From a virus (lineage: Duplodnaviria; Caudoviricetes), in the IMG/VR virus record IMGVR_UViG_3300037498_000121, positions 1-55,720 of that record: a stretch of DNA of 55,720 nt; one strand, given 5' to 3'. Position 1 is the stretch's first letter. The number at the start of each line of letters is the position of its first letter. The notes under the pieces are model-generated. The model was not told the DNA's origin. It was given only the letters and a program-made list of their open reading frames with translations, and searched no databases. The position numbers and the translations under genes are program-made. Shown in pieces: positions 2,153-54,153 of this stretch.

Positions 2153-2169
2153 GGGGTGATCCTTTCCAG

Positions 2170-2210: not shown

Positions 2211-2315
2211 AACGCGTGACCAGCGCAATCCGTGGTGTAGTGCGCCGCCACAATACCAGATACTCGCTTGTCTACCACCCTATTTAACGATTCAGCTCGA
2301 CAAGAACGGGAGAAA

Positions 2316-4159: not shown

Positions 4160-4381
4160 TTCTCTCTCCTGGTGTTGGTACTTCCCGCGCGTAGGCGCAT
4201 TTTCATCTTTTATGGGAAAGTTCCAGAGAAGGCAAGTAGAAAAAGTTCCAGAAAAAGTAATTGTCCAGCCCTACCTTCCCGCTCCTTCTCAGCCCCTAGA
4301 TTATTTTTGGGCAGAGAATCCCATTTGCCCGCCCTCGCCCTCTGATCCGCTCTTCGCTCTTTACATTGCTTGGCGCCGCTC

Positions 4382-4414
4382 AAGGACTACTGAAGGACGA
4401 CTGGAAGACTACCT
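4382..4414. repeat. 11-bp degenerate tandem repeat x3
   Basis: AAGGACTACTG / AAGGACGACTG / GAAGACTACCT. Confidence 0.6.
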
Positions 4415-4427
4415 CTCAAGAGGCTAC

Positions 4428-4487
4428 CCAGTTTCGATCGTCTTCCATCCAATTTCGATCGTCTTCCATCCAGTTTCGATCGTCTTC
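4428..4487. repeat. 21-bp tandem repeat x about 3 (iteron-like)
   Basis: CCAGTTTCGATCGTCTTCCAT / CCAATTTCGATCGTCTTCCAT / CCAGTTTCGATCGTCTTC, with no spacers. Confidence 0.9.
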
Positions 4488-4527
4488 TTGAATCTTCTTT
4501 TTCTTAACCCGGCTTCGCGATCATACC

Positions 4528-4717
4528 CTAGTCGGCTCCTTCTGCGAAGGAGCCAACTAGCGGCGATTTTTAGAACCTTTTCTTTGATGGGAAGGAATAG
4601 GGTGTCTGCTTCCCTCAGTTCCCAAATCAAATAGGATTTTAAGCATCTCCTCCCCCGGTCAGCCCCCGAAGGGGGCGAACTGGGGAGCGAGATTGAGAGC
4701 AGTCGCGAAGCGACTGC
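4528..4717. other. Cluster of three GNA-triloop hairpins
   Basis: 4528-4560 minus strand CTAGTTGGCTCCTTC-GCA-GAAGGAGCCGACTAG; 4662-4676 GCCCCC-GAA-GGGGGC; 4699-4717 GCAGTCGC-GAA-GCGACTGC. Confidence 0.8.
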
Positions 4718-37131: not shown

Positions 37132-40100
37132 CTATTTCACTTCAAATTTCACCCACTGTACCCGGCAGGTATAGGGGTTATCGGCCTGGTCGCGGCCGAT
37201 CCACAGGAAGGTATCCTGCAAATCGCATTCGGCTGAACCCGTTTTTCCGGTCCAGAAAAATCCTACGTCCGTCAAGTTCACCATGGCGCTAGAGTTCTCC
37301 AGATTTTCCAGATCCAGGCTGAGGCGGTACTCATGCGACTGGTTGAACAGCACCGGATTCGGTGTTGAGACCGCCTTGTGAAGCGCACTCGCGTTATCGT
37401 AGAAGCTCAAGCTGATGGTCCCGTCTGCCAAGATCGCTACCGTCAAGCGGTTCCGGGTGGCGTTGGCCGTTCCAGAATTCCCGCCAATCTCGAAGAGCAC
37501 TGCGTACTCCGCTGTCTCCGAGGACTGGAACGGGACCTTGGCCTTGACCCGGATCTGGATGCTCTTGGCATTGGCGCTGCCACCAATGCGGATCGGCAGC
37601 AGCCCGTCATCCTTGGCCGCCGTGCACATGTTCTGGTGTTCGGTTGGGGTCAGGACCACACCCTTGAGGAAGATCACCTTGTGGAGCTTCCCGTTGAACG
37701 GCCGCACACCGTCCGCGTCGTTGGCGATGACCACGTCCTCTGCGTTCTGGGCGAGGGGGCCGACGGCCGCGTTGTTCACGCCCGGGGCGTTCAGGTCCAG
37801 GTAGGTCCGCATCTTCGAGGTCCCGTTGGTCAGGAACTCGTAAGTCGTTGTAAGGAGTTGCATTTTGTTCGGAGTTACCGAGTTGGTCGGAGACCAGCAG
37901 CTCGAACCCATCTCCGGGCTGACTGTGGCGATTGACATCCCGGCCTTCTTGCTGGCGGTGAGCCCGGCGAACCACCCGCACTGGTTGTCCCCATCGTTGG
38001 TCTTGCCGATGAGCGCCTCGTCCCCTATAGGGGCATCGTGTGCGGTGAAGAGAGCCACCACGCTGAAGTTGTGGTTGATGGCATCCGTCTCGACCAAGGA
38101 CGAGATCGCGTGCCCTATACGGTACTTCCCGCCCTCGTCCTGGCCGGCGAGGAAGACGTCGAACATCTCCGGGGATCCGCCGCGGCTGACCAGCGCAGCC
38201 GATTGCACAGCGTTGGAATCGAACATCCCCGGTCCGTTGGCCCGGATGAAGGGCACAGCCCCGGATCCAAAGCGCGCCCAGACGACTCCGTCGCTCGAAG
38301 TCGCCATCCCGACCTGGGCCGGGAGCCCGGCGGCGGGGTACCCGGTGTACAGCATAACGTACAGGGAACCATGTTTGACCACAGAGTTGACCCGGATCTC
38401 CTTGGCGTCCCAGGCCCCGGTCTCGCCCAGGTCCAGAACGGCGTTTCCAGAATTCTGCTTGGTCCAAGCAATCCCGTCGGAACTCGTAGCGTACCCGATC
38501 CGATGCACCGTCCCATCGTTTCCAGAAAACCACATCTTGTAGGTGACGTCGTCTTTGATGACCGCGCTGCCGTAGTGGCCGACATCATCGAACTTGCCAC
38601 TATCACCCAAGACAAGGACTGGGAGCCCAGCATTCTGCTTGATCCAGTTGATGCTGTCAGCACTTGTGGCATAGGCAATGCGATAAAATTCACCATCAAA
38701 CGCGGTGTACCAGCTCTTGTAGACGCCACCGTCCTTGATGACGCTCGGTGCGTAGATCCCGTCACTATCGCAGCCGCCGCTGGTGCCGATGTCGATAATC
38801 GGGTCGCCGGAATTGTGTCGATCCAATCCAGCGCCCACCGCGTAGCCGATGCGACCGTTGACGCCGTCGTTTCCGCCGTACCAGAGCTTGAAGGCACCGT
38901 CGTCTTCGAGCAGAGCTGCCCCAGTTCCAGAAGTCAGATAGCGATCAAACTTACCAGACAACCCAAAGCTGAATACCGCGTCGCCAGAGTTTTGTTTCGT
39001 CCAGGCAATGCCATTGGGGCTAGTGGCGTAACCCATGTTGAACACCGAGCCATTGAACCCGATGTAAAGCATCTTGTAGCTGGCCCCGTCGTAAAGAATT
39101 CCAGAAACGAAAACCTGGCTGCTGTCGAACTTGCCACCGGCGCCAACAGTCACGACTGGGTCGCCAGAGTTCTGCTTGACCCAGGTAATGCCGTCAGAGC
39201 TTGTCGCGTACCCTACTTGATTGTTGGTTCCGTTGCTCCCGGAATACCACATCTTGTAAGTGGCCCCGTCTTTGATGACCTGCGGGCAGTAGACGCTGAC
39301 CGAATCGAACTTGCCCTCGGCGCCCTGGGCGAGGACAGCGTTCCCAGAGTTTTGCTTGGTCCAGACAATCCCGTCGTCTGAAGTCGCGTAGCCAATGGTC
39401 CAATCGGTTCCAGCAGCGTAACCGGCGTACCACATCCGGTAGGTAAGTCCGTCCTTCATGACGTACGGATACGCTGCTTCGCCAGCGTCGAACTTGCCAA
39501 GCGTCGGACTGAGCACAGCGGCACCGTAGGTGGCCCAGGCAAGACCATCTTCTGAACTCGCGTAGCCTATCTGCCGACCACCACCAGAGTCGCCCGCGTA
39601 CCACATCTTCAAGTAGCCGCCGTCTCGAACGATGGATGGGCAAAGGACATTGGAAGTATCGAAGCGCGCCTGGGACTCGATGACCGCGTTGCCACTATTC
39701 TGGCGGGCCGGTCCAATCGCTTGGGCATAACCAATCCGGTGATTGGTCCCATCGGACCCACCGTACCAAATCTTGTAAACACCGTTGTCGTTAATTACGC
39801 ATAGGCCACACAGCCAAATTAATGCTTGATTTGATGAACGGTCAAAATTGGTGGTTCCGTAGAAACGAAGAACAGGATCTTCATTGTGTTGCCTTGTCCA
39901 AGTGATGCCATCCGAGGACGTAGCGTAACCCCACGAAGTGGTACTTCCGTTCACTCCAGAATAAATCATCTTGTAAATAGAGTCCTCTTTGATCACAAAG
40001 GGACTCTGTACGTGTGAATAGTCAAATTTACCCAATGCGCCTGTTATCAAAACTGGATTACCTGAATTCTGCTTTGTCCAAGAAATTCCATCGCTGGACG

Positions 40101-43100
40101 TTGCATACCCGAGTTGTAGAATTGATCCATTATGGCCGGAATACCACATTCTAAACGTAGCACCGTCCTTGATAACCCAAGCCATGTATACACGAGCACT
40201 GTCAAACTTGGCCGGTGTTACTGTAAGTACCGGTGTCGTCCCGTTTGGGTACGTCCAATTTACCCCATCCGATGATATAGCATACCCAATTTTGTAGTGC
40301 CCAGAAGCATCAATGGCCGTATACCACATTCGGAATACATCGCCATCCTTGAGTACGCATGGTTGCCATACGAAAGTTGAATCGAATTGTCCAGCTCGAA
40401 CATCTAGCACACATCCGCGGGTTCCGTTTCCCCTCTGATTCACCCATGTTATTCCATCCACCGACGTTGCATACCCAATTGCCCAATAATCCACATCGTT
40501 ATACCCGGTGTACCACATTTTATAGATGTTGCCGTCTTTGATTACACTGGGTGCGGCTACGTGCGTAGCATCGAACGCCGCTGCCGCCACAATCGACAGA
40601 ACGGCATTGGCCGAATTCTGCCGGACCATGTTGTCAATCGCCGCTAGCCCGATGCGAGTCATCAAAGTTCCATCCAAGGTCTGGCCAACATACCACATCC
40701 TGAAGTAGAACCCTTCTTGAACTACCGCCGGGCGAGATACGTTCTTCTCGTCAAACTTGGTGGATGCACCGACGGTCATGGTGTAATTGCCACTGTTCTG
40801 TCTCACCCAAGTTATGCCGTCAGCCGAGTAGGCATAGCCAATCTTGGTCGTCGTGGCAAGCAGACCCTCGTAAACCATGTAGTAACGCGAGTCGATCTTG
40901 AAGACACTGCAACTGAGAACACCCGCTGCGTCAAACATCCCTCCGGCCCCAACGTCCAGAACAGCATTGCCACCGTTCTGCTTCACCCAGGTAATGCCGT
41001 CGCTGGATGTCGCGTAGCCGATCCTCTTGATGCCATCAGAGACCTTTGTCCCTGTGTACCACATCTTCCAGGTCGAGCCGTCTTTGATGACCCAGGGATT
41101 GGTCACATGCTGGTCGTCGAATTTGCCACTGGCACCAATTGTCAGAACTGCGTTGCTCGAATTCTGTCTGGTCCATGTCGTCCCGTTGGTTGAAGTTGCG
41201 TAGCCCAGCGCCCAGACTGTGCCGTTGTACCCCGCGTACCACATGCGATAGGTACCGGCGTCGTTAACTACGCAGGGATCGCTGACTTGGATCTGGTCGA
41301 ATTCGCCACCAGCACCAACAGTCAGAACTGGAGCCCCACTGCTTTGTTTGGTCCAAGCGATGCCATCGGTCGAGATCGCGTATCCAATCTTGAAAGTATT
41401 CCGAGCAGCTGTTGTGCATCCGGCGTACCACATCCGGTATGTAGTTCCATCGACCAGAACCGTCGGCGATGCTATGCTGAAGCCATCGAACTTACCGGCG
41501 GGACCTTTATCAATTACTGGACTGTTTTGTAGGGTGCCATAAACGGAGGATAGCATCCCCATCGCCCAAATGGTTCCGTTGTATCCACCGTAAAAACCTA
41601 CATACCTGCTACCATTGTGCACAACACTTAACCCAAGAAGACCAGCTGAATCAAATTTACCAGCAGTCACCGTAGCAATTGGATTGTATGTACTCCTGGT
41701 GAAACTAACCATATCAGACGCATGCGCTGACCCAATACTCCAAGTAGACGCACTCATTCCACCATAAAACAATACACATTCGGTTCCTTCCAAGATAGCA
41801 CGCGGTGCTGTAACGTGTAAGCTGTCCCACCCAGCCCCTGCAGGAAGTACTTGCCCATACTTTGTCCATGCCGAAGCTAAATTATTCGTATAGGCAAGTC
41901 CGATAGTCCAAATAGTGCCATTGTGGCCAGAATAGTACATGTAGTAATAACCATTCGGATGGTACACTACACTAGGCCCAGTTACATGGAGCGACTCCCA
42001 AGTCGCAGCCACTCTTGCAATAATGGCATTACCGGAATTCTGCCTGGTCCAATTTATTCCATTCGTAGACGTTGCGTAGCCAATACCGGCATAGTTGGCG
42101 CCATCCCATCCTGTGTAAAACATATAGTACGTGCCAGCGACGTTGATGACACATGGTGTATACACCCCCGCATCATCGAATTTACCAGCTGCCCCAAAAC
42201 CTAAAACGGCGTTTCCAGAATTCTGCTTGGTCCAGGTGATCCCATCAGTCGAGGTCGCATACCCGATTCGATAGCCGGTTCCTTCGTACCCAGCGTACCA
42301 CATCTTATAAGTTCCAGCTTCATACAAGACGGAAGGGTAAAGTACATAGGTTGCATCAAACTTGCCTGCTGTACCAACCATAACAGCGTTTCCGCTGTTC
42401 TCTTTGCAGAACCCCAATGGCTGCAGACCGCTTACAAAATTCTTTCCGAGAATGAAGTACTCAATTATAGTAGAATTAACATTCCAACATTTGTACACAG
42501 TTCCATCCAACATCAACTGCCCAGCCCACCGCACAGAGCCGTTATCGAAACAGGACCCATTTACTACTGGACCGTGTTTGACCCAAGTAATACCATCGGC
42601 AGAGGTAGCGTAACCAATACGGTACTCTCCATATCCAGTATAAATCATACGGTAGACTGTACCCAATATTGTATCCTTGATTACCGACGGACAGACCAAC
42701 CCACCAACATCAAACTTTCCAGCGGCACCTACGTTTACTACAGCATTACCACTGTTCTGTCTCGTCCACGTATCACCGTCAGTAGATGTCGCGTAACCAA
42801 TACGGTATATATTGTCACTTGTCTTATACCCCACATACCACATTTTATACGTTGCACCATCTAAAATGACACTCGCATCGCCAACAAACAAATCATCAAA
42901 TTTTCCCGCGACCCCAGCTTGCAAAACGGCATTACCTGAATTTTGACGTGTCCAAACAATTCCATCAGGTGATGTTGCATGACCAATAGCGGAATTTCCA
43001 GAACCATCTCCTGTGTACCACATATGGTATGTAGCACCATTTTTGATAACACTGGGTTTCGTAACATGATCAGCGTCAAACTTGCCGGCTACGCCATTAT

Positions 43101-46100
43101 AAAGTACCGGGCAACCATTGACCTGTTTTGTCCACGTAACCCCATCTGTAGAAGTTGCATAACAAATTAGGTATTTAGCACTACCACCATACGGAGTTCC
43201 GTACGCATGATACCAAGCCTTATAGATGCTGCCATCTTTGATGATACTTGGTCTGCCTAAAAGAGTGGTGTCGTACCCACTCGCCCCAAGATCGAGTACC
43301 TGGTTGCTACTGTTCTGCCTGGCCCACGCCGTCAAGGCATTATCGTCGAACAGCGCCATGCCCACGGCCTTGGTCGCATCGGACTTGATTCCCGCATACC
43401 AGAGCTTGTAGTCGGCCCCTTCCTGAATCAGGCAACTCTCTCCGATCTGAGTATCGTCGAACTTGCCCGCAGTCCCGAGACCGAGCACGCGGGTGTTGGT
43501 CAGAACCTTGGTGCAGGTGCTCAGGTCCGTTGTCGCGAATCCAAGACGACCGGTTCCACCTGCGTCGACCCCTGTATAGACCATCTTGTAGGCCACCGTC
43601 GCCGGTGGGAAATCGGCGTAGATGAGCCCGATTCGATAGACCGCGTCGCCTTCATCGCCGGTGTACCAGATTCGCATCTGGGCTCCGAAGACGACAGGAG
43701 CGACGTTCGCGATGCCAACATCGTCGAACTGACCAGAGCTTCCGAGAATAATCACTGCGTCGCCGCTGTTCTGCCGGGTCCAGGTGATCCCGTCGGTCGA
43801 GATGGCGTACCCAACCCGAGAGACGTTGGAGGCATCCACCCCTGTGTAGAACATGTGATACGTGCTGCCGATCAGAGAAACCCTGGGATTGGTCACGTAC
43901 TTGGCGTCGAATTTTCCACCTGCTCCAACTGCCAAGACGGCGTCACCACTGTTTTGGCGAGTCCAGGTAATACCGTCAGATGACGTCGCGTATCCGATGG
44001 TCTTGTGATCCGAACCGTCGTCTCCGAAGTACCACATCCGATAGGTCGCACCGTCTTTGATGACACAGGGGCTAAGCACGCCGGCGGCATCGAACTTGTC
44101 ACCAGCGCCCAAGCCCAGTACAGCGTTTCCAGAATTCTGGCGAGTCCAGGTCAAACAATCTGTCGAAGTCGCGTATCCGATCCTCCAAAGACCGTCTGCA
44201 ACCGATTTACCGCCGTACCACATCTTGTAAGTGGCGCCGTCTTTGATGATCGACGGCAACGAAACTTGAGCATCGTCAAACTTGGTGCTCTCACCAACAG
44301 TGAGAACTGGGTCGCCAGAGTTTTGCCTGGTCCAGGTGAGACCGTCCGTGCTGGTAGCGTATCCAATCTTATAGTCGTTCTGGGCAATGCTATGGCAACC
44401 CGAATACCACATACGATAAGTCATGTCATAGAGCACTGCCCCAACGATGGTGCTGAACGCGTCGAACTTGGCCACTGTACCTAAGCTCAAGACAGGATTT
44501 CCAGAATTCTGGCGGACCCCACCGACGACCATGGCGTGCCCGATGGCATTGACCAACGAGACGTTTGTTCCACAGTACCAGATGCGATACGTGTTACCGA
44601 CCTGAACCGTACAGACCTGGTGAGCATTTGTTACGTCGAACTTGCCAGCCCCGCCGATGGTCAGAATCGGATTCCCGGCGTCTTTCGTCCAATTGATACC
44701 GTCTGACGAAGTGGCAAAACCAACTTTGGCATTTGTTCCGTCACTGCCCGTGTACCACATTCCGTACTGCGCTGCCCCAGCGAATACAACGTGAGAAGCG
44801 TAGACATTCGTCGCCTCCCATCCGGTACCAACCGAGAGAACAGCATCTCCATTGCTCTGTTTGGTCCAGGTAGTCCCATTGGTCGAGGTTGCGTAGCCAA
44901 TGCGGTAGGCAGCCCCACTGATCCCCGTGTACCACATCCTCCATGAATTTGTAGATGTGTCGCGGATTACTCGTGGATACAGAACTCCAGTTTCATCAAA
45001 CTTGCCACCGACCCCTTTATCAAGAACTGCATTTCCAGAATTCTGTTTGGTCCAGATGAGGCCATCTGTCGAAGTCGCGTAGCCAATTCGCCAAGTACTG
45101 TCCGAGGCCTTCTTGCCGCTGTACCACATGTAATATGTGCTGCTGACTTTGGAAACGCTGGGGCTCGCCAGGTCAGCGTCGTCAAACTTGCCCGACGCAC
45201 CAGTCTCCAGCACTGGCAAACCTCCGTATCCACGAATCCAGACGATCCCATCGGTCGAAGTCGCATACCCGATATTGCTCTTGGTGCTGTTCGTTCCTTG
45301 GTACCACATCTTGTACGTCGAGCCGTCATAGATGATACTGGGATTCGACACGCCAACTTTGTCGAAACTCTCAGAAGTAAATACGAGAGTGTTCATCAGA
45401 GTCCGGCGTCCAGTCTGTGCACCATCTGACAGTTCCACAGACATGTACAGATACGTTCCGTCGAAACACGGGTAGGTCTGGTGACTTCTGGAGTACCCCA
45501 GATTGTCAAACGGGTCATTTCCCCAACCAACGATAGGTTGGTTCTGATTGCCAACGCCCCAATTCAGCCCATCAAGCGAGATGGCGTAGAAAATACTGTA
45601 ATACCCGTCGATATGAGGCTTCGAATAGAACATGATGAAGTACGTACCATTGTAGTAAACCGACGGGAATCCAGCAGCAGCTCCAAGAATTGTGAACGCG
45701 TTGCCACCATTCCCCCGAGCCCAGGTGATGCCATCTGTCGACGTAGCGTAGCCGATACCGCCAGCACCACCGGTGTACCACATGCGATAATCGCCTGCAG
45801 CTATCCGAAGAACACTTGGGTAGCAGGCTCCGTAGTAGTCGAACGAACCAGAACCGACGGTATCAAATACCGGATTCCCGGCTGTGTAGTCGGTCCAATC
45901 AAGACCACTTCTTCCAGCCCAGCTGCTGCATGTCGCCCGACCTATCCTGTAGTACCCATCGGTTCCCTGTCCGGTGTACCACATCTCGTATTGCGTCGCC
46001 GAGATTCTAACGACGCTGGGAGCGAACTGCTGGGTACACCACGCTCCAAGAGCAAAAATAGGCTGACCGTTGTTCTCGAACTCGATCTCTCCGGCAAGGT

Positions 46101-49100
46101 CTGTGATTCGCCCTACGAGCAATCTTCTTATTGAAGACGAATTGATACCGGCCAGGTAAACCAGACGCATGATGTGCGCCGAATTGGTTGCTTGGTACGG
46201 GACAACACACGCGCTGTCGTGACCGTAGGCCATGGTAACTGAAGTATCGATACCTCGATCCATAACCATGCCGTGTTTGGTCCAAGTCGTACAATTTGTT
46301 GATGTGGCGTACCCAATTCGTGCCTTTTCTGAATCCCATCCAATGTACAGCATATGAAAATACCCGGATGCAAACCAGACTGCAGGGTTGTAAACCCCAG
46401 CATCATCGAACGACCCACCAGCCCCAAGATTCAATACGGCTGCGTTGTAACCACCCACCGTGTACTTACCAAAACTAACGCCATCAGATGAAGTTGCTAA
46501 TCCAATTCTCCAATTCCCATTGTACCCACCGTAAAACATATAGTAAGTACCATTGTACTTTACAACAGAAGCAGATGATATCTCACTGTAATCAAAATTG
46601 TTTGCATTCTGATAACCATTTAAGATTGAGAACGTACTACCACGCGTCCAACTAGTTCCATTCGACGAGTAGAAATAAACAATACTTACTTCAGACCCAT
46701 TATTGCCAGTACCTCGGCACCACATCTTGAAATACCCACCATCTCTAATGACCGATGGCGCAAATTGCCCTATGCCAATGTACGGATCATCGCGGTATGC
46801 TACAGTTGTCACGTAGCTTCCGTTATTAACTCGTGTCCAATTTATCAAATCTGGAGAAGTCGCAGCAATAAAAGCCTTCATCCAATTGGCAGTACTTGGA
46901 TTCCACCACTGCGCTGTAGTAAACATCCACCACAGATTAGTATTTTCATTAAATACTATCGTTGGATGGTTAATTTGATTGTCCCCAGGAATTGAAACAC
47001 CACTGGGAGTTACTCCATAATACCCAACCGGCCCAACCGTAATAAGATGTGAATATGGTCTGGTCAACGTTGAATTCTCAGTCCACGGTTGCCCCAATGG
47101 CCAAGACAGAGCCAAACCACCATATCCAGTTGTCCCGTCGTTTGCACGGTAAGAAACGTAAACTTCACCAGATGGACCAACAGCTGCAGAAATCCAATCA
47201 ATCTGTGTACGATCCCAGGTCTGCGCATGAAACTGGGTAATCAGCGCAGACGTCTTGGACACTGGAGCGATAGCATCGTAGGTGGCACCTTCGTGGTACC
47301 CGATTCGACTACATCCCCCTTTATTAGAACCACCACGCCACGTCTTCCAAATTGTATTACCTGGCGATGAAGTCGTATCAACCAATACAGACGACCCATT
47401 ACCAGTTGGCATCTCCCATACGTTACTGCTACTTATTTCTGCTTCGACTGTCCACGAATTGGGATTTGCCGTTGGGGTCATTCTGTATAAACGTGCCCGG
47501 TATGGAGTACTGTACGTAGCAGCACGAAGCCACATATAGTATGTAGAATTATAGTAAGCAACTGACACCAGAGAAAAATTGGAAAAACCGTACCCGGTTT
47601 GTGTTATCTTCGAATAGACAGGGTTCCCAGAATTCTGTCTCGTCCAGGTAACACCATTGGATGACGTAGCGTGTCCTATCCCATACCAATAAGATCCCTC
47701 ATGGCCGATATAAAACATGTGGAACAACGATCCGTCATGCGTCACTGCAGGATAAACAACATGTATGTCATCAAACTTGCCAGCTGTCCCCACTGACAAA
47801 ACAGCGTTTCCAGAATTCTGCTTGGTCCAAGTTATCCCATCTGTGGACTTGGCGTACCCGATCCGATACAACCCAGTGGCCGAGCACCCAGAGTAAAACA
47901 TGTGCAGTTCACTATTGTAATAGACCACAGACGCTGTATAAGCCTGGGTATCGTCGAACTTGCCTCCAGCGCCAAGAGGGAGAACAGGTGCTCCACCATT
48001 CGCCCGAGTCCAGCGCAATCCATCGGTAGATGTCGCACAGAAGATCCGTGAAACAGAACCATTGCTACCTGTGTACCACATGTAGTAAAGCGAACTGAAT
48101 CCATCTGCGGGTTGGACCACAGATGGCGAACTGACACTCATGTTATCCAGAAATCCATAGACCCCAGAATCAAAAACGATATTGGTGGTCAATTGTCTCG
48201 GCACGCTGCTAAGATACTTCTGGCCACCACTGCCGCTGGCACTGAAAACAGCGTTGCCACTATTCTCTCGCGAAACAATCTCAGGGGTAGTTAGTAGGGC
48301 CGGACCTATCAACGCATACCCAATCTTGTACTGGCCGCCAACGTCCTGGCCGCCGTACCAATATTTGAATGTGTTCGAGTCAAGTAAGAGGCAACCCTGA
48401 TGCACAAACAGGTTGTCAAAGTTCCCGGTCCCAATCCCGAGAATGGCATTGCCACTGTTTTGTTTGACCCAAACGATTCCATCAAGAGAGTTGGCGTAAC
48501 CGTTTCGCCAGTTGGTCCCGTCGAACCCGGCATAGACCATGCGATAGGTCAAGCCGTCTTTGACGACGCCGCCGGGAAGAACGTGGGTAGCGTCGAACTT
48601 GCCGCCGCTCACCAGCAGGACTGCATTGCTGCTGTTTTGCCTGGTCCAAGAGATGCCATCGCTGGACGTGGCATAGCCGACTTGCCAGGTACCAGACGCA
48701 TTCTTGCCGCCATACCACATCCTGAAAGTGCCACTGTCCAGAATCACCTGTGGGTACGAGACCCCAAGGGCATCGAAGTAACCACCAGAGCCAGCACCGA
48801 GAACAGCGTTTCCACTGTTCTGACGAGTCCAGACAATCCCATCCGAGGACGTCGCGTAACCAATAGTCCAAACACCAGACCCGGCATCGCCCGCGTACCA
48901 CATGCGATACGTAGCTCCGTCCTTCAGGACCGATCCGTACGCTGCTTGGGCATCGTCGAACTTGCCGCCGGCGCCATAGGCCAGAACTGGATTTCCAGAA
49001 TTTTGCTTGGTCCAGGTAATGCCATCGGAGGACGTTGCGTAACCGATCCGGCCGCTCGACTCGGCATCGGTTCCGGTGTACCACATCTTGTAGGTCGCAC

Positions 49101-52100
49101 CGTCTTTGAGGACCGACGGGTTGCCCGATCCACTGACATCGAAGCCTGTGTACCCCCCGGCCATTAGAGAGTTGCCACTGTTCTGCCGAACGTACAGCGT
49201 GTACAACCCGAAGAGCGCAGCGTCTGGGATCAAAGCCGTAGGGTTCTTCACATGCAGCGCGTCGAAAGTCCCTCCAGCTCCCTTGGCCAGAATGGGGTTG
49301 GTGCTTGGGTTACTCTTGGTCCAGGAGATCCCATCGGACGAATAGGCATAGCCTACTTGGTAGTTCGTGTTGTTGTACCCGGTGTAAAACATGCGCAGTG
49401 TCGCGCCGTCGACAACTACACATGGCATGTTTACGCCATATTGATCGAAGTACCCCGAAGTGCCGACGGCCAGAACAGCGTCGCCAGAGTTCTGCCGAGT
49501 CCAGACGAGGCCGTCTGGAGATGTCGCGTAGCCAATCGTCCAGACCCCTCCCGCGGACACGCCCCCGTACCACATGCGATAAGCGGATCCGTCTTTGACT
49601 ACCCAGCACCCAGCCACCTGAGCCGCATCAAACTTGCCTGTCTCTCCAAGGCCCAAGACCGCCTCGGACCCGTTCTGAATCGCCCAGGTGATCCCGTTGG
49701 CCGAAGTCGCATGGTAAATTCTGGAAACCGAGCTGACCGTACCAGTGAACCACATCTTGTACGTGCCTGAATCGTTGATGACACACGGAGCAGTGATTGG
49801 CATGGCCGGAAAGCCAGTGGGGTTGTGTGCGAATACAGCGTTGCCGCTGTTTGCTCGCTCCAGGGCGGTCAGGTCGTTGAGCAGGCTGTAGCCAATTCTC
49901 CACTTCAATCCGTCGTAGCCGGAGTACCACATCTTGTGTACTCCGCCGTCTACCAGCCAAACCGGAGCACCGATATGGACATCGTCAAACTTGTCGGCAA
50001 TACCCAGATACATGAAGGCATTGTCAAGACCGTTGTTTTGCTTGGTCCAAGTCGTGCCATTGGTCGATGTCGCGTAGCCAATCTTGGCGTTATTCGCAGA
50101 ATCGTCCCCTCGATAGAGCATTCGATAAAGCGTACCGTCGAGTATCACACTGGGATCCCGCACGGCCATATAGTCGAACTTGGTACTGGCACCGACGTCG
50201 AGAACGGCATTGGCCGAATTCTGTTTGGTCCAGGCGATTCCATTCGCGCTAGTAGCGTAACCGATTCGCCTCTTGGAGTCTGAAACTTTGACCCCCGTAA
50301 AGAACATTCGATACGTTGCCCCGTCTTTGAACACGCAGCATTGCCCAAGGCTCAGCTCGTCAAACTTGCCGCTGGTCCCGAGATCGAGCACGGCATCGCC
50401 AGAGTTCTGCCGGGTCCAGACGAGACCATCGGGAGAGGTCGCGTATCCAATCTTGTAGACTCCGCTGACCTGGCCGCCGACGTACCACATCTTGTATGTG
50501 CCACCGTCGTTGATGACCCAGCAGGACGTGATCGAGTAGTCGTCGAACTTGCCCCCGGCGCCCACGCCCAGGACCGGTTGTCTGTTGTTCTGCTTGGTCC
50601 AGACGATGCCGTCTGTCGACGTGGCGTAACCAATCTTGTACCGAGGGCTGGAGTAACCGGCGTACCACATCTTGTAGGTGCCTGCGTCGTTGATGATGCT
50701 AGACGAATACACCTGCTCGGCATCGAACGGAGCCGTACCGAGATCGAGCACGGCATTGCCACTGTTCTTTCGCTCGAACGCGGTCAGGTCTCCCATTACG
50801 CCGTAACCGACCCGCCAATTGGTTGCGTCGAATCCGGCGTACCACACCCAATACGTCGTTCCGTCAAACACAATAGAAGGTGAACCCACGTCAGATACGT
50901 CAAACTTGCCTACAGCCCCTACGGTAGAAATAGCATTGGCAGTGTTCTCGCGATTCCAGACAATCCCATCTGCACTGGTCGCATAGCCAAACCGATCAAT
51001 GCTCCCATTGTACCCGCAGTAAAGCATCTTGTAGACGCTACCGACTTTCACTACGCTGGGATCGCTCACCGAGTTGGCGTCGAACTTTCCACCGACTCCG
51101 AGATCGAGAACGGCATTTTCAGAGTATTGCTTAACCCAGGTAATGCCATCGGAACTGGTGGCGTACCCAATGCGCAGCTTGGAGTCTGAGTTCTTCAGAC
51201 CCGTAAACCACATCTTGTAGATAGCCCCGTCTTTGATGACGCAAAGCGAGCCTAGACTCTTATCGTCGAACTTGCCGCTTGTGCCGAGATCCAGAACCGG
51301 ATCGCCCAGGTTCTGACGTGACCAGACAATGCCGTCTATCGACGTGGCGTAACCGATCTTGTAATTCCCGGCTGCCTGGCAACCGGCGTACCACATTTTG
51401 TACGTCACATCCTTGATGACCGAACAGTAACCAATGGACGCGTCGTCGAACTTGCCAGCGACTCCGACGCCAAATACCTTGCGTTCGTTGTTCTGCTTGG
51501 CCCAAGTAATCCCGTCTTCACTGGTGGCGTACCCGACCATAGACAGGATGCCATCAGACCCGATATACCACATCTTGAAGACGTCACTATCGAGAATGAC
51601 CGAAGGGGCCGCGGCCCCGACCGAATCGAATCCAGTACCCCCGACATCGATCACTGGATTGCCACTGTTCTGTTTGAGCCAAGTAAGGCGATCACTCGAC
51701 ATGGCCAAGCCCACGCGGTTCTTATCACCGTCGTTCCCACTATAAAAGAGCTTGAGGGTTCCTCCGTCGTTGATGACGCTAGGCTCGTATACGAACTCGT
51801 TGTCGAACTTGCCAGGTGCCCCTGCAGACAGAACGGGCAAGCCCTTGTTCTGTCGGACCATGTCTATATTGCCGATGTTGAAATCGGCGCCACCATCGTC
51901 ATGCTGGATGTCCACGTGCTTGGTACTGGCATCGAACTCGTAGCTCTTGCCCTCAGCTTCAGTGTTCACCAACCGGGGCCCACCGATCATGTCCATCGGG
52001 TATCCGGTAACGTCGTCCGAAGTCTGTGTCCCGATGGGGTCCTTCTCGAAGTTGCACAGGAATGTGGGAATGTGGTTGAGGGGTATATCTTTGGAAATCT

Positions 52101-54153
52101 TGTTCGCCACCAGGTTTGTTTTTTCAGAAGTCGAGGCTTCCAGAATTAGCGAAGCAAAGTCTCCGCGCTTTTCCGTCACCCACGTGGTGGGCATGGCGAC
52201 TGCGTCTGTCCCTTCAACGTAACCGCTGACCGCGTCTCCCTCTTCGAGCTGAACCTCGTAAATGGCCACCGCGTCCTGGTCCAGGCCGAGATACGATAAG
52301 TCACTGGAAGCTGTCGCGCTCAAAAAAACCTTGTAGGTCTCCGTTGGGTCAAGCAACTCCACTGCCTGGGATACCCAAAAGAACCCATTCCCATCCGGCT
52401 CTATTTTTGAGCCGCACCCACCGACCCTAGTTCCCACAGACCCATGCCCCACCAGATGAAACAGCGAGTACTGCTTGACAGCGTCTGTGCCAACTGGCAA
52501 CGAGAACCAGTCTCGCCCCAGGGGTTTGACTTTGACTGATAGCGTATACTTGCCTGGAGCCAGAACGGGCAGGACCTGGTCGATGTTGTGCTCTGCGGTG
52601 CTGTCGTCTTCATGAAGCACAAACGCGCCCGTACCGCCGTCAGGATCTAAGCCCCCGTAAGCAGCAACCGTACCGTTATTCTTCGCCCAGTCGCTATGCG
52701 TGAACAGATTGGTGCGCTTCAAGACGTTCTTGATGCGTCCTTCGCTGCCAATTCGCATCTCGTCAACGGGGGTACTGATTATCGTCCCATCAGACTTGTA
52801 AACATTCGCAGGGGCTGCTCGACTGAAATCGAGATGGGAGATCACCCGATTCTGGGAACCGTGTTTGATCCCGGTAAGCAGATCCTCTTCTCGCGCCTGC
52901 CGAACCGAATTCAGCGCCGCGGTATCGATTCGCAGATAAACCATGTAGCCCTTGAACAGATTGCTGGGCCCGCTGCGCGCTCCAACGTAAAGTCCTGCGC
53001 CTGGCGATACCCCGAACCCCGCCACGCTCTTCATCTCGGCCATCTTGTTGTTTACGGTTAAAGTCGCGATGTCGTCTTTGCGGATCAGAACAATCCGATT
53101 CACAGCCCCAACGTGAATCGCCCCAGTCAGGGTCACGCTCGTCGTGTTGTAGTACGTCGCATTGATGGTCCCCTCGGCGATATCGTACCAAAACTCAAAA
53201 CCGCGATCCGGCCCCGCGGCGTAACAAGACAGCAAGCGAGATCCGCTATCGGCATCGACATGCACAATCCCGCTCACCGTATGATCGCGCGTGAACAGCG
53301 TTGGGTCAGGCAGAGCGTTCACCCCGAAGAACTGGTCAATGCCGTTGAACCCTCGTCCCTGCAGATACGCACTTCGCGTGCCCGGGATAGCCGTGATCAC
53401 TGTCGGGGGATTTCCGTAGGCAGTCAGATTGATTTTCGGTTTGACGACGCTGAGCGTCTTCACGTACCTGGGCATGTGCCCCATCGATTTCGCGACCCCG
53501 GTGATCTCCACGAAATGCACCCGGGTCACCGCGATAGCGTTCACCCCGCCGCCAGTGTAGATGTGCAGGTTGTTCTGCTTGGCTCCACAAATGCGAATAT
53601 CGTAATCAGCCGAGTGCGTCGCCTCAAACTCCAACACCACTTTCTGCCAACCATGAGGCGCCCGGTAACAGCTTCTCAGCTTGATAACGCTTCCAGAAAG
53701 ATTCGCCCCGAATACCCCAGTCACGAGATTGAGGTAGAACCCGTGGTCTACTTCACCAGAGTACAGGTCGGTCACCTTGAGCACTGCCCAGGGCCTGACC
53801 ATCGAATGGATCAACGCGGTCAAGCGATAAGTCTTCCCAGCCGTCAAGCTGGTCTTGAGCTGAGTCACCGCATGCAGCTGTTGCTCTTCGCTGGTGTTCT
53901 CTTTCAGGACGTTGACCGTCCCGGTATTGCCGTCAGGCAAGAGAATAGCGTCGGAGACGATCTCCCCGTTGACCTTGACCCATGGAGTCTGGGTCATATC
54001 CTCGCTGGCCTTGACCTGGTTCTCCCCAGATTGATCAAGCCAGTTGCCGCTAGAGTCAACCGAATCCCCAGCGTACTCACAAAGCGTATTCTCGTTACGG
54101 AGAGTCAGGACTGGGGAGCCCGTGAAATCGATAGACCCTGAGCGCTTGACCAT
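37132..54153 (-). CDS. Giant 5673-aa virion appendage protein: LamG/CBM-like domains plus about 15 five-bladed Asp-box beta-propellers (GH43/32/130-like fold)
   Basis: Uninterrupted 17-kb ORF with GGAG RBS; about 75 repeats of about 61 aa: NSGNAVLxxGxxGKFDxxxVxxPxVIKDGxTYKMWYxG...IGYATSxDGxxWTxQ. Confidence 0.9.
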   Translation of the reverse strand: MVKRSGSIDFTGSPVLTLRNENTLCEYAGDSVDSSGNWLDQSGENQVKASEDMTQTPWVKVNGEIVSDAILLPDGNTGTVNVLKENTSEEQQLHAVTQLKTSLTAGKTYRLTALIHSMVRPWAVLKVTDLYSGEVDHGFYLNLVTGVFGANLSGSVIKLRSCYRAPHGWQKVVLEFEATHSADYDIRICGAKQNNLHIYTGGGVNAIAVTRVHFVEITGVAKSMGHMPRYVKTLSVVKPKINLTAYGNPPTVITAIPGTRSAYLQGRGFNGIDQFFGVNALPDPTLFTRDHTVSGIVHVDADSGSRLLSCYAAGPDRGFEFWYDIAEGTINATYYNTTSVTLTGAIHVGAVNRIVLIRKDDIATLTVNNKMAEMKSVAGFGVSPGAGLYVGARSGPSNLFKGYMVYLRIDTAALNSVRQAREEDLLTGIKHGSQNRVISHLDFSRAAPANVYKSDGTIISTPVDEMRIGSEGRIKNVLKRTNLFTHSDWAKNNGTVAAYGGLDPDGGTGAFVLHEDDSTAEHNIDQVLPVLAPGKYTLSVKVKPLGRDWFSLPVGTDAVKQYSLFHLVGHGSVGTRVGGCGSKIEPDGNGFFWVSQAVELLDPTETYKVFLSATASSDLSYLGLDQDAVAIYEVQLEEGDAVSGYVEGTDAVAMPTTWVTEKRGDFASLILEASTSEKTNLVANKISKDIPLNHIPTFLCNFEKDPIGTQTSDDVTGYPMDMIGGPRLVNTEAEGKSYEFDASTKHVDIQHDDGGADFNIGNIDMVRQNKGLPVLSAGAPGKFDNEFVYEPSVINDGGTLKLFYSGNDGDKNRVGLAMSSDRLTWLKQNSGNPVIDVGGTGFDSVGAAAPSVILDSDVFKMWYIGSDGILSMVGYATSEDGITWAKQNNERKVFGVGVAGKFDDASIGYCSVIKDVTYKMWYAGCQAAGNYKIGYATSIDGIVWSRQNLGDPVLDLGTSGKFDDKSLGSLCVIKDGAIYKMWFTGLKNSDSKLRIGYATSSDGITWVKQYSENAVLDLGVGGKFDANSVSDPSVVKVGSVYKMLYCGYNGSIDRFGYATSADGIVWNRENTANAISTVGAVGKFDVSDVGSPSIVFDGTTYWVWYAGFDATNWRVGYGVMGDLTAFERKNSGNAVLDLGTAPFDAEQVYSSSIINDAGTYKMWYAGYSSPRYKIGYATSTDGIVWTKQNNRQPVLGVGAGGKFDDYSITSCWVINDGGTYKMWYVGGQVSGVYKIGYATSPDGLVWTRQNSGDAVLDLGTSGKFDELSLGQCCVFKDGATYRMFFTGVKVSDSKRRIGYATSANGIAWTKQNSANAVLDVGASTKFDYMAVRDPSVILDGTLYRMLYRGDDSANNAKIGYATSTNGTTWTKQNNGLDNAFMYLGIADKFDDVHIGAPVWLVDGGVHKMWYSGYDGLKWRIGYSLLNDLTALERANSGNAVFAHNPTGFPAMPITAPCVINDSGTYKMWFTGTVSSVSRIYHATSANGITWAIQNGSEAVLGLGETGKFDAAQVAGCWVVKDGSAYRMWYGGVSAGGVWTIGYATSPDGLVWTRQNSGDAVLAVGTSGYFDQYGVNMPCVVVDGATLRMFYTGYNNTNYQVGYAYSSDGISWTKSNPSTNPILAKGAGGTFDALHVKNPTALIPDAALFGLYTLYVRQNSGNSLMAGGYTGFDVSGSGNPSVLKDGATYKMWYTGTDAESSGRIGYATSSDGITWTKQNSGNPVLAYGAGGKFDDAQAAYGSVLKDGATYRMWYAGDAGSGVWTIGYATSSDGIVWTRQNSGNAVLGAGSGGYFDALGVSYPQVILDSGTFRMWYGGKNASGTWQVGYATSSDGISWTRQNSSNAVLLVSGGKFDATHVLPGGVVKDGLTYRMVYAGFDGTNWRNGYANSLDGIVWVKQNSGNAILGIGTGNFDNLFVHQGCLLLDSNTFKYWYGGQDVGGQYKIGYALIGPALLTTPEIVSRENSGNAVFSASGSGGQKYLSSVPRQLTTNIVFDSGVYGFLDNMSVSSPSVVQPADGFSSLYYMWYTGSNGSVSRIFCATSTDGLRWTRANGGAPVLPLGAGGKFDDTQAYTASVVYYNSELHMFYSGCSATGLYRIGYAKSTDGITWTKQNSGNAVLSVGTAGKFDDIHVVYPAVTHDGSLFHMFYIGHEGSYWYGIGHATSSNGVTWTRQNSGNPVYSKITQTGYGFSNFSLVSVAYYNSTYYMWLRAATYSTPYRARLYRMTPTANPNSWTVEAEISSSNVWEMPTGNGSSVLVDTTSSPGNTIWKTWRGGSNKGGCSRIGYHEGATYDAIAPVSKTSALITQFHAQTWDRTQIDWISAAVGPSGEVYVSYRANDGTTGYGGLALSWPLGQPWTENSTLTRPYSHLITVGPVGYYGVTPSGVSIPGDNQINHPTIVFNENTNLWWMFTTAQWWNPSTANWMKAFIAATSPDLINWTRVNNGSYVTTVAYRDDPYIGIGQFAPSVIRDGGYFKMWCRGTGNNGSEVSIVYFYSSNGTSWTRGSTFSILNGYQNANNFDYSEISSASVVKYNGTYYMFYGGYNGNWRIGLATSSDGVSFGKYTVGGYNAAVLNLGAGGSFDDAGVYNPAVWFASGYFHMLYIGWDSEKARIGYATSTNCTTWTKHGMVMDRGIDTSVTMAYGHDSACVVPYQATNSAHIMRLVYLAGINSSSIRRLLVGRITDLAGEIEFENNGQPIFALGAWCTQQFAPSVVRISATQYEMWYTGQGTDGYYRIGRATCSSWAGRSGLDWTDYTAGNPVFDTVGSGSFDYYGACYPSVLRIAAGDYRMWYTGGAGGIGYATSTDGITWARGNGGNAFTILGAAAGFPSVYYNGTYFIMFYSKPHIDGYYSIFYAISLDGLNWGVGNQNQPIVGWGNDPFDNLGYSRSHQTYPCFDGTYLYMSVELSDGAQTGRRTLMNTLVFTSESFDKVGVSNPSIIYDGSTYKMWYQGTNSTKSNIGYATSTDGIVWIRGYGGLPVLETGASGKFDDADLASPSVSKVSSTYYMWYSGKKASDSTWRIGYATSTDGLIWTKQNSGNAVLDKGVGGKFDETGVLYPRVIRDTSTNSWRMWYTGISGAAYRIGYATSTNGTTWTKQSNGDAVLSVGTGWEATNVYASHVVFAGAAQYGMWYTGSDGTNAKVGFATSSDGINWTKDAGNPILTIGGAGKFDVTNAHQVCTVQVGNTYRIWYCGTNVSLVNAIGHAMVVGGVRQNSGNPVLSLGTVAKFDAFSTIVGAVLYDMTYRMWYSGCHSIAQNDYKIGYATSTDGLTWTRQNSGDPVLTVGESTKFDDAQVSLPSIIKDGATYKMWYGGKSVADGLWRIGYATSTDCLTWTRQNSGNAVLGLGAGDKFDAAGVLSPCVIKDGATYRMWYFGDDGSDHKTIGYATSSDGITWTRQNSGDAVLAVGAGGKFDAKYVTNPRVSLIGSTYHMFYTGVDASNVSRVGYAISTDGITWTRQNSGDAVIILGSSGQFDDVGIANVAPVVFGAQMRIWYTGDEGDAVYRIGLIYADFPPATVAYKMVYTGVDAGGTGRLGFATTDLSTCTKVLTNTRVLGLGTAGKFDDTQIGESCLIQEGADYKLWYAGIKSDATKAVGMALFDDNALTAWARQNSSNQVLDLGASGYDTTLLGRPSIIKDGSIYKAWYHAYGTPYGGSAKYLICYATSTDGVTWTKQVNGCPVLYNGVAGKFDADHVTKPSVIKNGATYHMWYTGDGSGNSAIGHATSPDGIVWTRQNSGNAVLQAGVAGKFDDLFVGDASVILDGATYKMWYVGYKTSDNIYRIGYATSTDGDTWTRQNSGNAVVNVGAAGKFDVGGLVCPSVIKDTILGTVYRMIYTGYGEYRIGYATSADGITWVKHGPVVNGSCFDNGSVRWAGQLMLDGTVYKCWNVNSTIIEYFILGKNFVSGLQPLGFCKENSGNAVMVGTAGKFDATYVLYPSVLYEAGTYKMWYAGYEGTGYRIGYATSTDGITWTKQNSGNAVLGFGAAGKFDDAGVYTPCVINVAGTYYMFYTGWDGANYAGIGYATSTNGINWTRQNSGNAIIARVAATWESLHVTGPSVVYHPNGYYYMYYSGHNGTIWTIGLAYTNNLASAWTKYGQVLPAGAGWDSLHVTAPRAILEGTECVLFYGGMSASTWSIGSAHASDMVSFTRSTYNPIATVTAGKFDSAGLLGLSVVHNGSRYVGFYGGYNGTIWAMGMLSSVYGTLQNSPVIDKGPAGKFDGFSIASPTVLVDGTTYRMWYAGCTTAARNTFKIGYAISTDGIAWTKQSSGAPVLTVGAGGEFDQIQVSDPCVVNDAGTYRMWYAGYNGTVWALGYATSTNGTTWTRQNSSNAVLTIGASGKFDDQHVTNPWVIKDGSTWKMWYTGTKVSDGIKRIGYATSSDGITWVKQNGGNAVLDVGAGGMFDAAGVLSCSVFKIDSRYYMVYEGLLATTTKIGYAYSADGITWVRQNSGNYTMTVGASTKFDEKNVSRPAVVQEGFYFRMWYVGQTLDGTLMTRIGLAAIDNMVRQNSANAVLSIVAAAAFDATHVAAPSVIKDGNIYKMWYTGYNDVDYWAIGYATSVDGITWVNQRGNGTRGCVLDVRAGQFDSTFVWQPCVLKDGDVFRMWYTAIDASGHYKIGYAISSDGVNWTYPNGTTPVLTVTPAKFDSARVYMAWVIKDGATFRMWYSGHNGSILQLGYATSSDGISWTKQNSGNPVLITGALGKFDYSHVQSPFVIKEDSIYKMIYSGVNGSTTSWGYATSSDGITWTRQHNEDPVLRFYGTTNFDRSSNQALIWLCGLCVINDNGVYKIWYGGSDGTNHRIGYAQAIGPARQNSGNAVIESQARFDTSNVLCPSIVRDGGYLKMWYAGDSGGGRQIGYASSEDGLAWATYGAAVLSPTLGKFDAGEAAYPYVMKDGLTYRMWYAGYAAGTDWTIGYATSDDGIVWTKQNSGNAVLAQGAEGKFDSVSVYCPQVIKDGATYKMWYSGSNGTNNQVGYATSSDGITWVKQNSGDPVVTVGAGGKFDSSQVFVSGILYDGASYKMLYIGFNGSVFNMGYATSPNGIAWTKQNSGDAVFSFGLSGKFDRYLTSGTGAALLEDDGAFKLWYGGNDGVNGRIGYAVGAGLDRHNSGDPIIDIGTSGGCDSDGIYAPSVIKDGGVYKSWYTAFDGEFYRIAYATSADSINWIKQNAGLPVLVLGDSGKFDDVGHYGSAVIKDDVTYKMWFSGNDGTVHRIGYATSSDGIAWTKQNSGNAVLDLGETGAWDAKEIRVNSVVKHGSLYVMLYTGYPAAGLPAQVGMATSSDGVVWARFGSGAVPFIRANGPGMFDSNAVQSAALVSRGGSPEMFDVFLAGQDEGGKYRIGHAISSLVETDAINHNFSVVALFTAHDAPIGDEALIGKTNDGDNQCGWFAGLTASKKAGMSIATVSPEMGSSCWSPTNSVTPNKMQLLTTTYEFLTNGTSKMRTYLDLNAPGVNNAAVGPLAQNAEDVVIANDADGVRPFNGKLHKVIFLKGVVLTPTEHQNMCTAAKDDGLLPIRIGGSANAKSIQIRVKAKVPFQSSETAEYAVLFEIGGNSGTANATRNRLTVAILADGTISLSFYDNASALHKAVSTPNPVLFNQSHEYRLSLDLENLENSSAMVNLTDVGFFWTGKTGSAECDLQDTFLWIGRDQADNPYTCRVQWVKFEVK

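Follow-up and report, generated by a model that had tools for sequence, protein, structure and literature searches.

How can a single phage reading frame be understood as a folded protein when, in its translation, repeated blades and even a LamG domain break off and resume hundreds or thousands of residues downstream? The question is raised by one gene (37132-54153, minus strand) in a 55.7-kb window of viral DNA, which is the entire IMG/VR virus record IMGVR_UViG_3300037498_000121, classed as linear and with a CheckV completeness of 52. The gene is a single open frame of 17,022 nt encoding 5,673 amino acids (aa), and its product is called P0001 below. An earlier note, made from the letters of the window without database searches, had seen in it propellers inside propellers inside a split LamG domain. 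Having followed this up, we favor a nested reading, to which we assign a probability of roughly 0.78, in which a phage fibre scaffold of about 1,070 aa carries a 4,596-aa propeller array on four levels in one loop of a LamG domain, the product being a giant virion-fibre-like protein of a myovirus.

The scaffold would consist, in order, of a conserved N-terminus, a jelly-roll, a LamG domain, a tail-fibre-like domain, a second LamG domain and a C-terminal domain. The insert (aa 763-5358), placed in one loop of the second LamG, would comprise 15 GH130-like five-bladed beta-propellers. At level 1, a propeller O would be split after its first blade, and at level 2 an eight-propeller string (P1-P8) would lie inside O. 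At level 3, P3 would be split within the hairpin between strands 1 and 2 of its blade 4, enclosing three propellers (PA, PB, and PC), and at level 4 PB would be split right after its N-terminal segment, enclosing three divergent propellers (I1-I3). Pairing of the two halves is predicted by modeling for one of these nests (P3), and the halves of LamG, O, and PB would pair in the same manner.

Complementary breaks in the propeller array

Blade units were located with a 61-position hidden Markov model (HMM) built from the clear repeats of P0001 itself, with the register QNSGNAVL..G..GKFD...V..PSVIKDG.TYKMWY.G.....RIGYATS.DG.TWTK. It identified 73 GH130-like units, most of them contiguous with no gap between them; the array as a whole amounts to about 75 blades, or 15 five-bladed propellers. 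By our reading of the unit table, a single consensus covers all five blades of a given propeller, and an aromatic-Asp pair is present at the start of strand 1 in 57 of the 64 units covering the relevant HMM stretch. Propellers are 39-56% identical to one another within and between P0001 and a second giant protein described below (P0005), and no one-to-one orthology was seen among them.

The end of a propeller was read as a unit lacking the final 'TSxDGxxWTK', followed by a short linker and 'RQNSGN...'. Units 6, 11, 20, 37, 42, 44, 49, 54, 59, 64, 69, and 73 are truncated in this way, and there are nine regular five-unit sets. Along the chain, the units fall into a set of six (units 1-6), a set of five (units 7-11), three full units followed by unit 15 which stops at HMM position 33 (units 12-15), another set of five (units 16-20), and unit 21, which covers HMM positions 2-12 only. 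A divergent region (aa 1977-2925) separates unit 21 from units 33-37, a set of five of which the first begins at HMM position 12. These are followed by a set of five (units 38-42), by unit 43 (HMM positions 31-53) together with unit 44, by five further sets of five (units 45-69), and finally by a set of four (units 70-73).

The irregular sets pair as 6+4, 3.5+1.5, and 0.2+4.8 units. The positions at which a blade breaks and resumes are 61/2, 33/31, and 12/12, and thus agree within two of the 61 HMM positions, while the counts sum to five in all three pairs (the first set being read as 1+5, see below) and the pairs are properly nested. By our own arithmetic, which is not the result of a tool, the chance of such matching is roughly 4e-6, i.e., (5/61)^3 x (1/5)^3. 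The segment order in the unit table is LamG(N)-O(N)-...P3(N)-...PB(N)-I-PB(C)-...P3(C)-...O(C)-LamG(C), with the pairing itself modeled for P3 only, and corresponds to the A1-B1-C-B2-A2 order of recursive domain insertion.

All seven marker strings on which the earlier note relied are in place on this map, in which every module lies on the minus strand. The N-terminal scaffold (51964..54153, aa 1-730) contains the conserved N-terminus, a jelly-roll-like domain 1, a complete Laminin_G_3 domain (approximately aa 280-415, matching Pfam profile positions 8-146), and a tail-fibre-like domain 3. It is followed by the N piece of the split second LamG (51868..51963, aa 731-762), with YEFDASTKHVDI at aa 738 and DFNIGN as its last residues (aa 757-762, window 51885-51868), which aligns to the first strands of the unbroken domain in five of five homologues. 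The next stretch (51673..51867, aa 763-827) holds a linker and unit 1, which has a start-type linker and the N-segment IDMVRQNKGLPVL and is the putative opening blade of O, the outer "clasp" propeller. Propellers P1 (aa 828-1129) and P2 (aa 1130-1434) share the interval 49852..51672 and have five units each according to the unit table, P1 also according to a structural model.

The N-part of P3 (49222..49851, aa 1435-1644) comprises its N-segment, blades 1-3, and strand 1 of blade 4, and terminates in FDALHVKNPTALIPD (aa 1630-1644, ending at window 49222). A junction linker, AALFGLYTLYVR, and the five units of PA (aa 1657-1963) take up 48265..49221 in the unit table, and lead to the orphan N-segment of PB, NSGNAVFSASGSG (48226..48264, aa 1964-1976, ending at window 48226), which is unit 21. 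The inner insert I (45379..48225, aa 1977-2925) contains about 15 divergent blades: 12 units were identified by iterated HMM searches, leaving gaps of 141, 80, and 59 aa in which three more blades were read by eye. The PB body (44515..45378, aa 2926-3213) begins at HMM position 12 (TSESFDKVG) without an N-segment of its own, and ESFDKVGVSNP is found at aa 2928, starting at window 45372. After PC (43615..44514, aa 3214-3513, five units in the unit table), the C-part of P3 (43318..43614, aa 3514-3612) supplies strands 2-4 of blade 4 (VAYKMVYTG...) and blade 5; its unit 43 begins at HMM position 31, and YKMVYTG is found at aa 3522, starting at window 43590.

Propellers P4-P8 (38815..43317, aa 3613-5113), with five units each, precede the C-part of O (38098..38814, aa 5114-5352), with four units of which the final one is of the truncated end type. 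The C piece of the split LamG (37654..38097, approximately aa 5353-5500), with INHNFSVVALF at aa 5359 (window 38079), was delimited by Pfam and the homologue alignment, and the C-terminal domain (37135..37653, approximately aa 5501-5673) closes the protein. The enclosed lengths are those claimed at the outset, namely 1,877 aa (aa 1645-3521) between the halves of P3 and 951 aa (aa 1977-2927) between those of PB. The claim that inserts are multiples of five blades also holds, with 70, 30, and about 15 blades, the last figure being the 12 HMM units plus the three read by eye. The picture of a branched tree rather than beads on a string survives in part, as there are loops nested in loops, but the levels themselves are strings of beads, with 8, 3, and 3 propellers, and the whole is not a pure tree.

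The LamG host and a second giant protein

The C piece matched Laminin_G_3 (PF13385) with 31.6 bits against a cut-off of 27.6, over profile positions 16-142 of 151; within a longer scanned segment, the same piece scored 25.3 bits, which is under the cut-off. Approximately the first 15 profile positions are absent from the C piece and correspond to aa ~738-762, some 4,600 aa upstream. Homologues were collected by a HMMER search with scaffold aa 97-700 against 1.84 billion representatives, which returned 2,340 matches at E<=1e-3. Several of these are array-less, with a length of about 850-1,430 aa and an unchanged order of domains, and those retrieved (P0007, P0009, P0010, P0019, P0085, and P0114; 850-1,428 aa) resemble P0001 in scaffold domain order and in the C-terminal domain. 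The second LamG is present in P0010, P0019, P0085, P0007, and P0005. It is contiguous in all five, with the pattern 'DFN..G|.FS.V..' uninterrupted, whereas in P0001 it does not form one contiguous domain, the N piece stopping at 'DFNIGN' and the C piece restarting at 'FSVVALF'. The alignment was made with --keeplength, and a few P0001 residues are not displayed in it. In P0005, the domain matches Pfam profile positions 6-151 in a single stretch (E 5.6e-15). The claimed split of LamG is therefore borne out by five of five homologues which carry this domain unbroken exactly at the split point, together with a partial Pfam match on the C side.

In the array-less homologues, LamG is unbroken, and where a propeller occurs next to such a domain, as in a protein from an unrelated viral contig (L003), it stands beside LamG and not inside it. 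The L003 gene (7940-11596, plus strand) encodes a protein of 1,218 aa with a long Ser/Thr-rich linker, one propeller, and then a LamG-like domain. This propeller is five-bladed, belongs to the blade family of P0001, and directly precedes the Laminin_G_3-like domain, and the protein is thus an un-nested, side-by-side version of the two folds of P0001.

For the C-terminal part, no match was found in the phage collection and no confirmed relative among viral contigs, and the viral contigs gave no pattern match to the C-terminal stretch of P0005 either. When shorter proteins related to the C-terminal 334 aa were sought with a word index, only two close fragments were returned. P0006 (3,606 aa) was considered as a scaffold relative and rejected, since it shares one propeller and LamG domains with P0001 but not the scaffold. 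A search with the inner insert gave 286 matches, of which the best, P0156, is a plain array with 20 full blade units in a row and aligns in several registers. P0156 was rejected as a specific "cassette donor" of the inner insert, and no such donor was found among the 286 matches. Blades of the P0001 family occur widely in the surface proteins of bacteria and archaea.

P0005 (5,844 aa), one of three matches in a near-length search and the top match of the representatives search, is the only other giant among the 2,340 matches. Its aa 4-96 are 50% identical to P0001 aa 3-96, its aa 4683-5281 are 39% identical to and colinear with P0001 aa 85-682, and the two C-terminal domains, which are also common to the array-less homologues, are 39% identical. 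Between the two N-terminal stretches, P0005 carries an array of 76 units (aa 103-4682) within domain 1, at the equivalent of P0001 aa ~85-96, where P0001 is contiguous. Because LamG is contiguous in P0005 and domain 1 is contiguous in P0001, each protein shows that the array of the other is an insertion. The two giants are thus alike in scaffold (39-50% identity), in blade family, and in having split clasps around strings of whole propellers, and differ in that P0005 holds its array in domain 1 instead of LamG, with three concentric clasps around one string of 12.

In P0005, three opening partial units (HMM positions 1-40) are followed by twelve regular sets of five and then by three closing sets, each of which consists of an orphan strand-3/4 piece starting at HMM position 46 plus four units. 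As judged from these unit boundaries, they would form three concentric split propellers, each split after strand 2 of blade 1, around 12 propellers. The closing sets (S1-S3) align to positions 48-296 of a whole propeller and are mutual nearest relatives, with 149/251 identities between S3 and S2, 130/251 between S3 and S1, and 134/252 between S2 and S1. Among the opening units (n1-n3), n2 and n3 are closest (24/53, vs 20/53 and 22/52), and this parallel closeness of n2-n3 and S2-S3 is a weak signal that may fit a joint duplication of both halves. Whole split propellers thus seem to have been duplicated around the array of P0005 (aa 103-262 and 3910-4682).

Predicted folds and rival explanations

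Pfam Glyco_hydro_130 (PF04041) matched three segments of P0001 with 146.6, 208.5, and 68.8 bits against a cut-off of 26. In an AlphaFold2 (AF2) model of aa 700-1132 (alignment A3), units 2-6 reached a predicted local distance difference test score (pLDDT) of about 90. This part of the model, P1 (model range 123-427), superposed on the GH130 structure 9gph_B with Z 32.3 and a root-mean-square deviation (rmsd) of 2.1 Å over 272 of 296 residues, covering chain residues 2-297, and the top Foldseek matches were also GH130 proteins. The N piece of LamG and unit 1 were modeled with pLDDT under 50, and unit 1 lay outside the propeller. As units 2-6 alone form a whole propeller, the first six units are 1+5 and not a six-bladed ring, which lends less direct support to the proposed outer set of five, made up of one blade from the first set of six units and the four units of the last.

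The halves of P3 were modeled as two chains (aa 1428-1650 and aa 3514-3608), and nine paralogous propellers were aligned for either chain. The interaction prediction score from aligned errors (ipSAE) was 0.91 in three of three runs, compared with 0.01 for the best of three controls, with 207-211 contacts, a partner pLDDT of 80, and agreement between runs in at least 85% of contacts. Of 80 solved complexes, 58 reach the mark used, as do 2 of 110 mismatched pairs, a calibration which is only rough for alignments built from a protein's own paralogues. The confident interface joins aa 1627-1644 with aa 3520-3536 (FDALHVKNPTALIPD against VAYKMVYTG...). Rejoining separated halves in silico had been proposed as a check on the broken blade at 49222, and for this nest the two chains are predicted to pair and to complement each other. 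In the model, the N-terminal linker and segment and blade 1 touch blade 5, and the ring is closed with its chain ends adjacent.

For the innermost break, an AF2 model of aa 1964-2930 showed 15 blade-like strand groups, three of them at low confidence. Its first propeller, I1 (model residues 25-336, aa ~1988-2299), matched 9gph_B with Z 25.6 and an rmsd of 2.9 Å over 262 aligned residues, and all structural superpositions of the inner insert fall on model residues 24-336. I1 thus corresponds to a complete five-bladed propeller with the orphan segment aa 1964-1976 left out, and this predicted model, together with a PB body which lacks an N-segment of its own, agrees with the suggestion that the orphan segment belongs to PB. 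In both P1 and I1, the predicted models have the GH130 fold.

Several points weigh against the nested reading. Insert-free relatives, which the earlier note had suggested looking for, exist for the array as a whole in the form of array-less proteins with an unbroken LamG, but none was found for the inserts at levels 2-4, where insertion events were not seen directly. The structural support consists of predictions, and the two halves were modeled together for one nest out of four. Since five-bladed propellers have already been solved, the P3 result speaks for compatibility of fold and not for binding between these particular copies; the blades are homologous to solved propellers, and any fragments of 3.5 and 1.5 blades might complement each other. 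The low pLDDT of unit 1 may reflect a thin alignment (one orthologue row) rather than exclusion from the propeller, and within the inner insert I2 and I3 were modeled poorly (mean pLDDT of the insert 59.5; predicted template modeling score, pTM, 0.39). HMMs for the position of a blade within its propeller called units 2-6 as 1-2-3-4-5 and units 12-15 as 1-2-3-4, with a leave-one-out accuracy of 62/100, but were ambiguous or contrary for units 1, 43, 44, and 70: by this same 62/100-accurate test, unit 1 was called position 2 and unit 70 position 1, where nesting predicts 1 and 2. For the C-part of O, alignment to positions 1-4 of other propellers is about as good as alignment to positions 2-5, and BLAST of the outer fragments singled out no particular partners. 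Finally, the residues 'AALFGLYTLY' beyond the aa 1644 break line up with strand 2 in other blades and could be a decayed strand 2, in which case the junction at aa 1644 would be less clean.

These observations give some room to a plain string of beads, in which the odd fragments would be unpaired scars of unequal recombination which do not fold together. Repeat arrays recombine readily, a plain un-nested array exists in the 20 units of P0156, and both the pLDDT below 50 of unit 1 and the contrary position classes of units 1 and 70 are what such a model would expect. Against it, simple tandem duplication should by our reasoning orphan one side only, whereas here breaks and resumptions agree within two HMM positions, sum to five, and occur in nested order in three of three pairs, and the same pattern recurs three times in P0005. 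In addition, the fragments retain the family consensus, the junctions found in relatives at 85-92% identity are the same, and the P3 halves are predicted to complement each other with an ipSAE of 0.91 against 0.01 for the best control; we regard this explanation as unlikely. A related possibility is that the halves pair in trans, each completing that of another chain and thereby locking copies together, as could happen in a trimeric fibre. Oligomers are the usual form of phage fibres, the sequence is silent on pairing within or between chains, and the P3 prediction itself used two chains. Proximity nevertheless favors pairing within the chain, the nested order is a requirement of within-chain closure, and no coiled coil or trimerization signal was seen in the array, though no search was aimed at these; pairing in trans therefore appears quite improbable.

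The nested junctions could also be short-read chimeras, since the encoded protein is highly repetitive and the gene lies on a metagenome contig, and this was weighed with independent sequences. The junction from LamG into the array, together with the first six units, recurs in a related IMG/VR contig (L001, 85% identical), and the junction from the array back into LamG recurs in a JGI fragment (P0003, 87% identical). Logan contigs from four further sequencing runs, which belong to four studies, were placed at >=90% likeness, and a bridge was counted with at least 31 letters on each side. The start of the array (51868) is bridged by X4, the break of P3 (49222) by X2 (6 differences in 477 letters) and X5, the resumption of PB (45372) by X2, X4, and X5, and the end of the array (38098) by X2, X3, and X5, of which X3 is nearly identical to the window and may come from the same population. 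Positions 43590 and 48226 were not bridged among the contig matches listed, which counts against the nested reading and for an artefact, as does the divergence of X2 and X5 from the window before 43777. A frame which is open over 17,022 nt, contigs from other runs across four junctions, the presence of the first and last junctions in L001 and P0003, and the same kind of architecture in P0005, which comes from another source, all speak against chimeras. Random chimeras would in addition not yield fragments which are exactly complementary, in frame, and nested, and we consider an assembly artefact highly improbable.

At window 43777 (aa ~3460, the border of units 41 and 42), X2 and X5 match above and diverge below, and the relatives may carry a different module there or one which diverges past the 90% threshold. 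Joints at which contigs appeared to skip or go back were considered as deletion variants and set aside as repeat cross-matches, their sides being 20-49 letters at 90% likeness. No repeats and no microhomology were found in the junction DNA. The G+C content at third codon positions (GC3) is 0.40 in P4, 0.45 in P5, 0.47 in P7, and 0.47 in the inner insert, and 0.61-0.80 elsewhere, with most modules at 0.65-0.76. It drops sharply at aa ~3613 (window ~43317), exactly at the border between the C-part of P3 and P4, and shifts again near the PA|I, P6|P7, and P7|P8 borders. This mosaic fits modules of different histories, e.g., cassette exchange between phages, and is not proof of it.

Related architectures, function, and phage setting

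Under the nested reading, growth of the array would have come about as five-blade cassettes were inserted in frame and duplicated, of which only whole ones would survive selection. In the P3 model, the N-terminal segment packs on the last blade, which would bring the chain ends side by side, and a whole propeller, or a clasped string of them, would therefore be tolerated in any surface loop without disturbing the host fold. Such growth fits the different host domains of the arrays in P0001 and P0005, the array-less homologues of about 1,000 aa, and the GC3 changes near module borders.

Recursive insertion has been described for SI3 of the cyanobacterial RNA polymerase beta' subunit (rpoC2), in which hybrid-motif domains of one fold are reported to be nested as A1-B1-C-B2-A2, with 8-10 small domains on up to six levels and 640-690 aa in all (PMC13114784). 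SI3 and P0001 are alike in that domains of the same fold have been inserted repeatedly into each other, all in one host loop. P0001 differs in having 15 propellers of ~300 aa, 4,596 aa in total, inside a LamG of ~170 aa, and in that its levels also contain strings of 3-8 unsplit domains. The same study reports a survey of 48,551 insertion events in which the insert was smaller than its host in 77% of 48,263 paired domain measurements (PMC13114784). The inserts of P0001 (4,596, 4,286, 1,877, and 951 aa) all exceed their hosts of ~170-300 aa, and beside the survey P0001 is the extreme opposite of the usual small-insert case. The word "propeller" is absent from the text of PMC13114784, and no description of nested propellers was found in the literature searched. 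A 2026 preprint reports GH130-like propellers in giant viruses of amoebae, but no arrays.

The propellers of P0001 match PF04041 and superpose as wholes on GH130/DUF377 enzymes such as 1,2-beta-oligomannan phosphorylase (9gph and 9fj8). Identity to the solved enzymes is 13-20% in structural alignments, and the best sequence match (E 1.8e-5) is to a GH117-type chain. The enzymes are single propellers with, by our reading, asymmetric active sites, whereas P0001 is a nested array with a uniform blade consensus in each propeller. Several propellers in one chain are found in DDB1, an insert within a propeller in the I-domain of integrin alpha, and a five-bladed multivalent lectin in tachylectin-2. 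We know of no protein of the DDB1, integrin, or tachylectin-2 type in which propellers are nested over several levels or reach such an array size. The principle of recursion is thus known, and we rate as new here the fold, the far greater size, and the split propellers which clasp strings of whole propellers.

The product would display up to 15 propellers with five-fold pseudo-symmetry from one anchor point, and the array would most likely act as a multivalent, low-affinity binder of polysaccharide on the host or in its surroundings. Enzymatic activity of the propellers may also be considered; sequence matches to the solved enzymes are too weak to map catalytic residues (best E 1.8e-5, partial). 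Because a split clasp propeller would join the ends of a string of arbitrary length, and the array fits a LamG loop in P0001 and a jelly-roll loop in P0005, it may, as a tentative proposal which we do not press, be a self-closing, transplantable in-frame module which grows by recursion and, as the GC3 mosaic suggests, exchanges whole five-blade cassettes between phages; it would then be a natural combinatorial display for glycan binding.

If the nested reading is true, insertion would have no practical limit of size or depth when the inserted fold has adjacent termini, on a scale of ~4,600 aa and four levels inside a domain of ~170 aa, and giant repeat proteins would have an evolutionary route other than simple tandem duplication. 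One scaffold in three forms (array-less, or with the array in either of two domains) would be a natural experiment suited to the study of folding order and of the co-translational folding of discontinuous domains. It would also provide a design template for presenting many binding modules from one anchor point, and it would suggest that phages of sediment communities make a multivalent adhesin of very large size.

As to the phage itself, PHROG families for tail sheath, baseplate wedge, baseplate hub, and tail fibre were found on the minus strand of the window, and the giant open reading frame (ORF) lies 5-30 kb from these sheath, baseplate, and tail-fibre genes of the same strand. The N-terminal 765 aa matched eight phage records annotated as tail fibre or minor tail protein, at 27-31% identity over only 22-33% of the query, and the tblastn matches to such proteins cover aa 423-675. 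Among PHROG profiles, P0001 matched phrog_8510 ("virion structural protein", E 2.1e-6), and the C-terminal domain weakly matched phrog_22896 ("tail protein", E 6.6e-4). Clusters of proteins that look like the scaffold are 97-100% viral and consist of LamG proteins. By sequence, the scaffold resembles the fibre or receptor-binding protein of a phage.

No tRNA genes were found within the window. At the opposite end of the record, replication genes (1-3797, minus strand) encode a DnaB-like helicase C-terminal domain and a ResIII/DEAD-type helicase. An ORF of 1,301 aa adjoining the baseplate genes (9217-13122, minus strand) contains a Laminin_G_3 domain (E 9.1e-14) as the sole family detected. The gene immediately upstream of the giant ORF (54322-55719, minus strand) runs past the end of the window and has a weak match to PF06536, the N-terminal repeat of avian adenovirus fibre (29 bits vs a cut-off of 22.7), which hints that it may encode another fibre-like protein.

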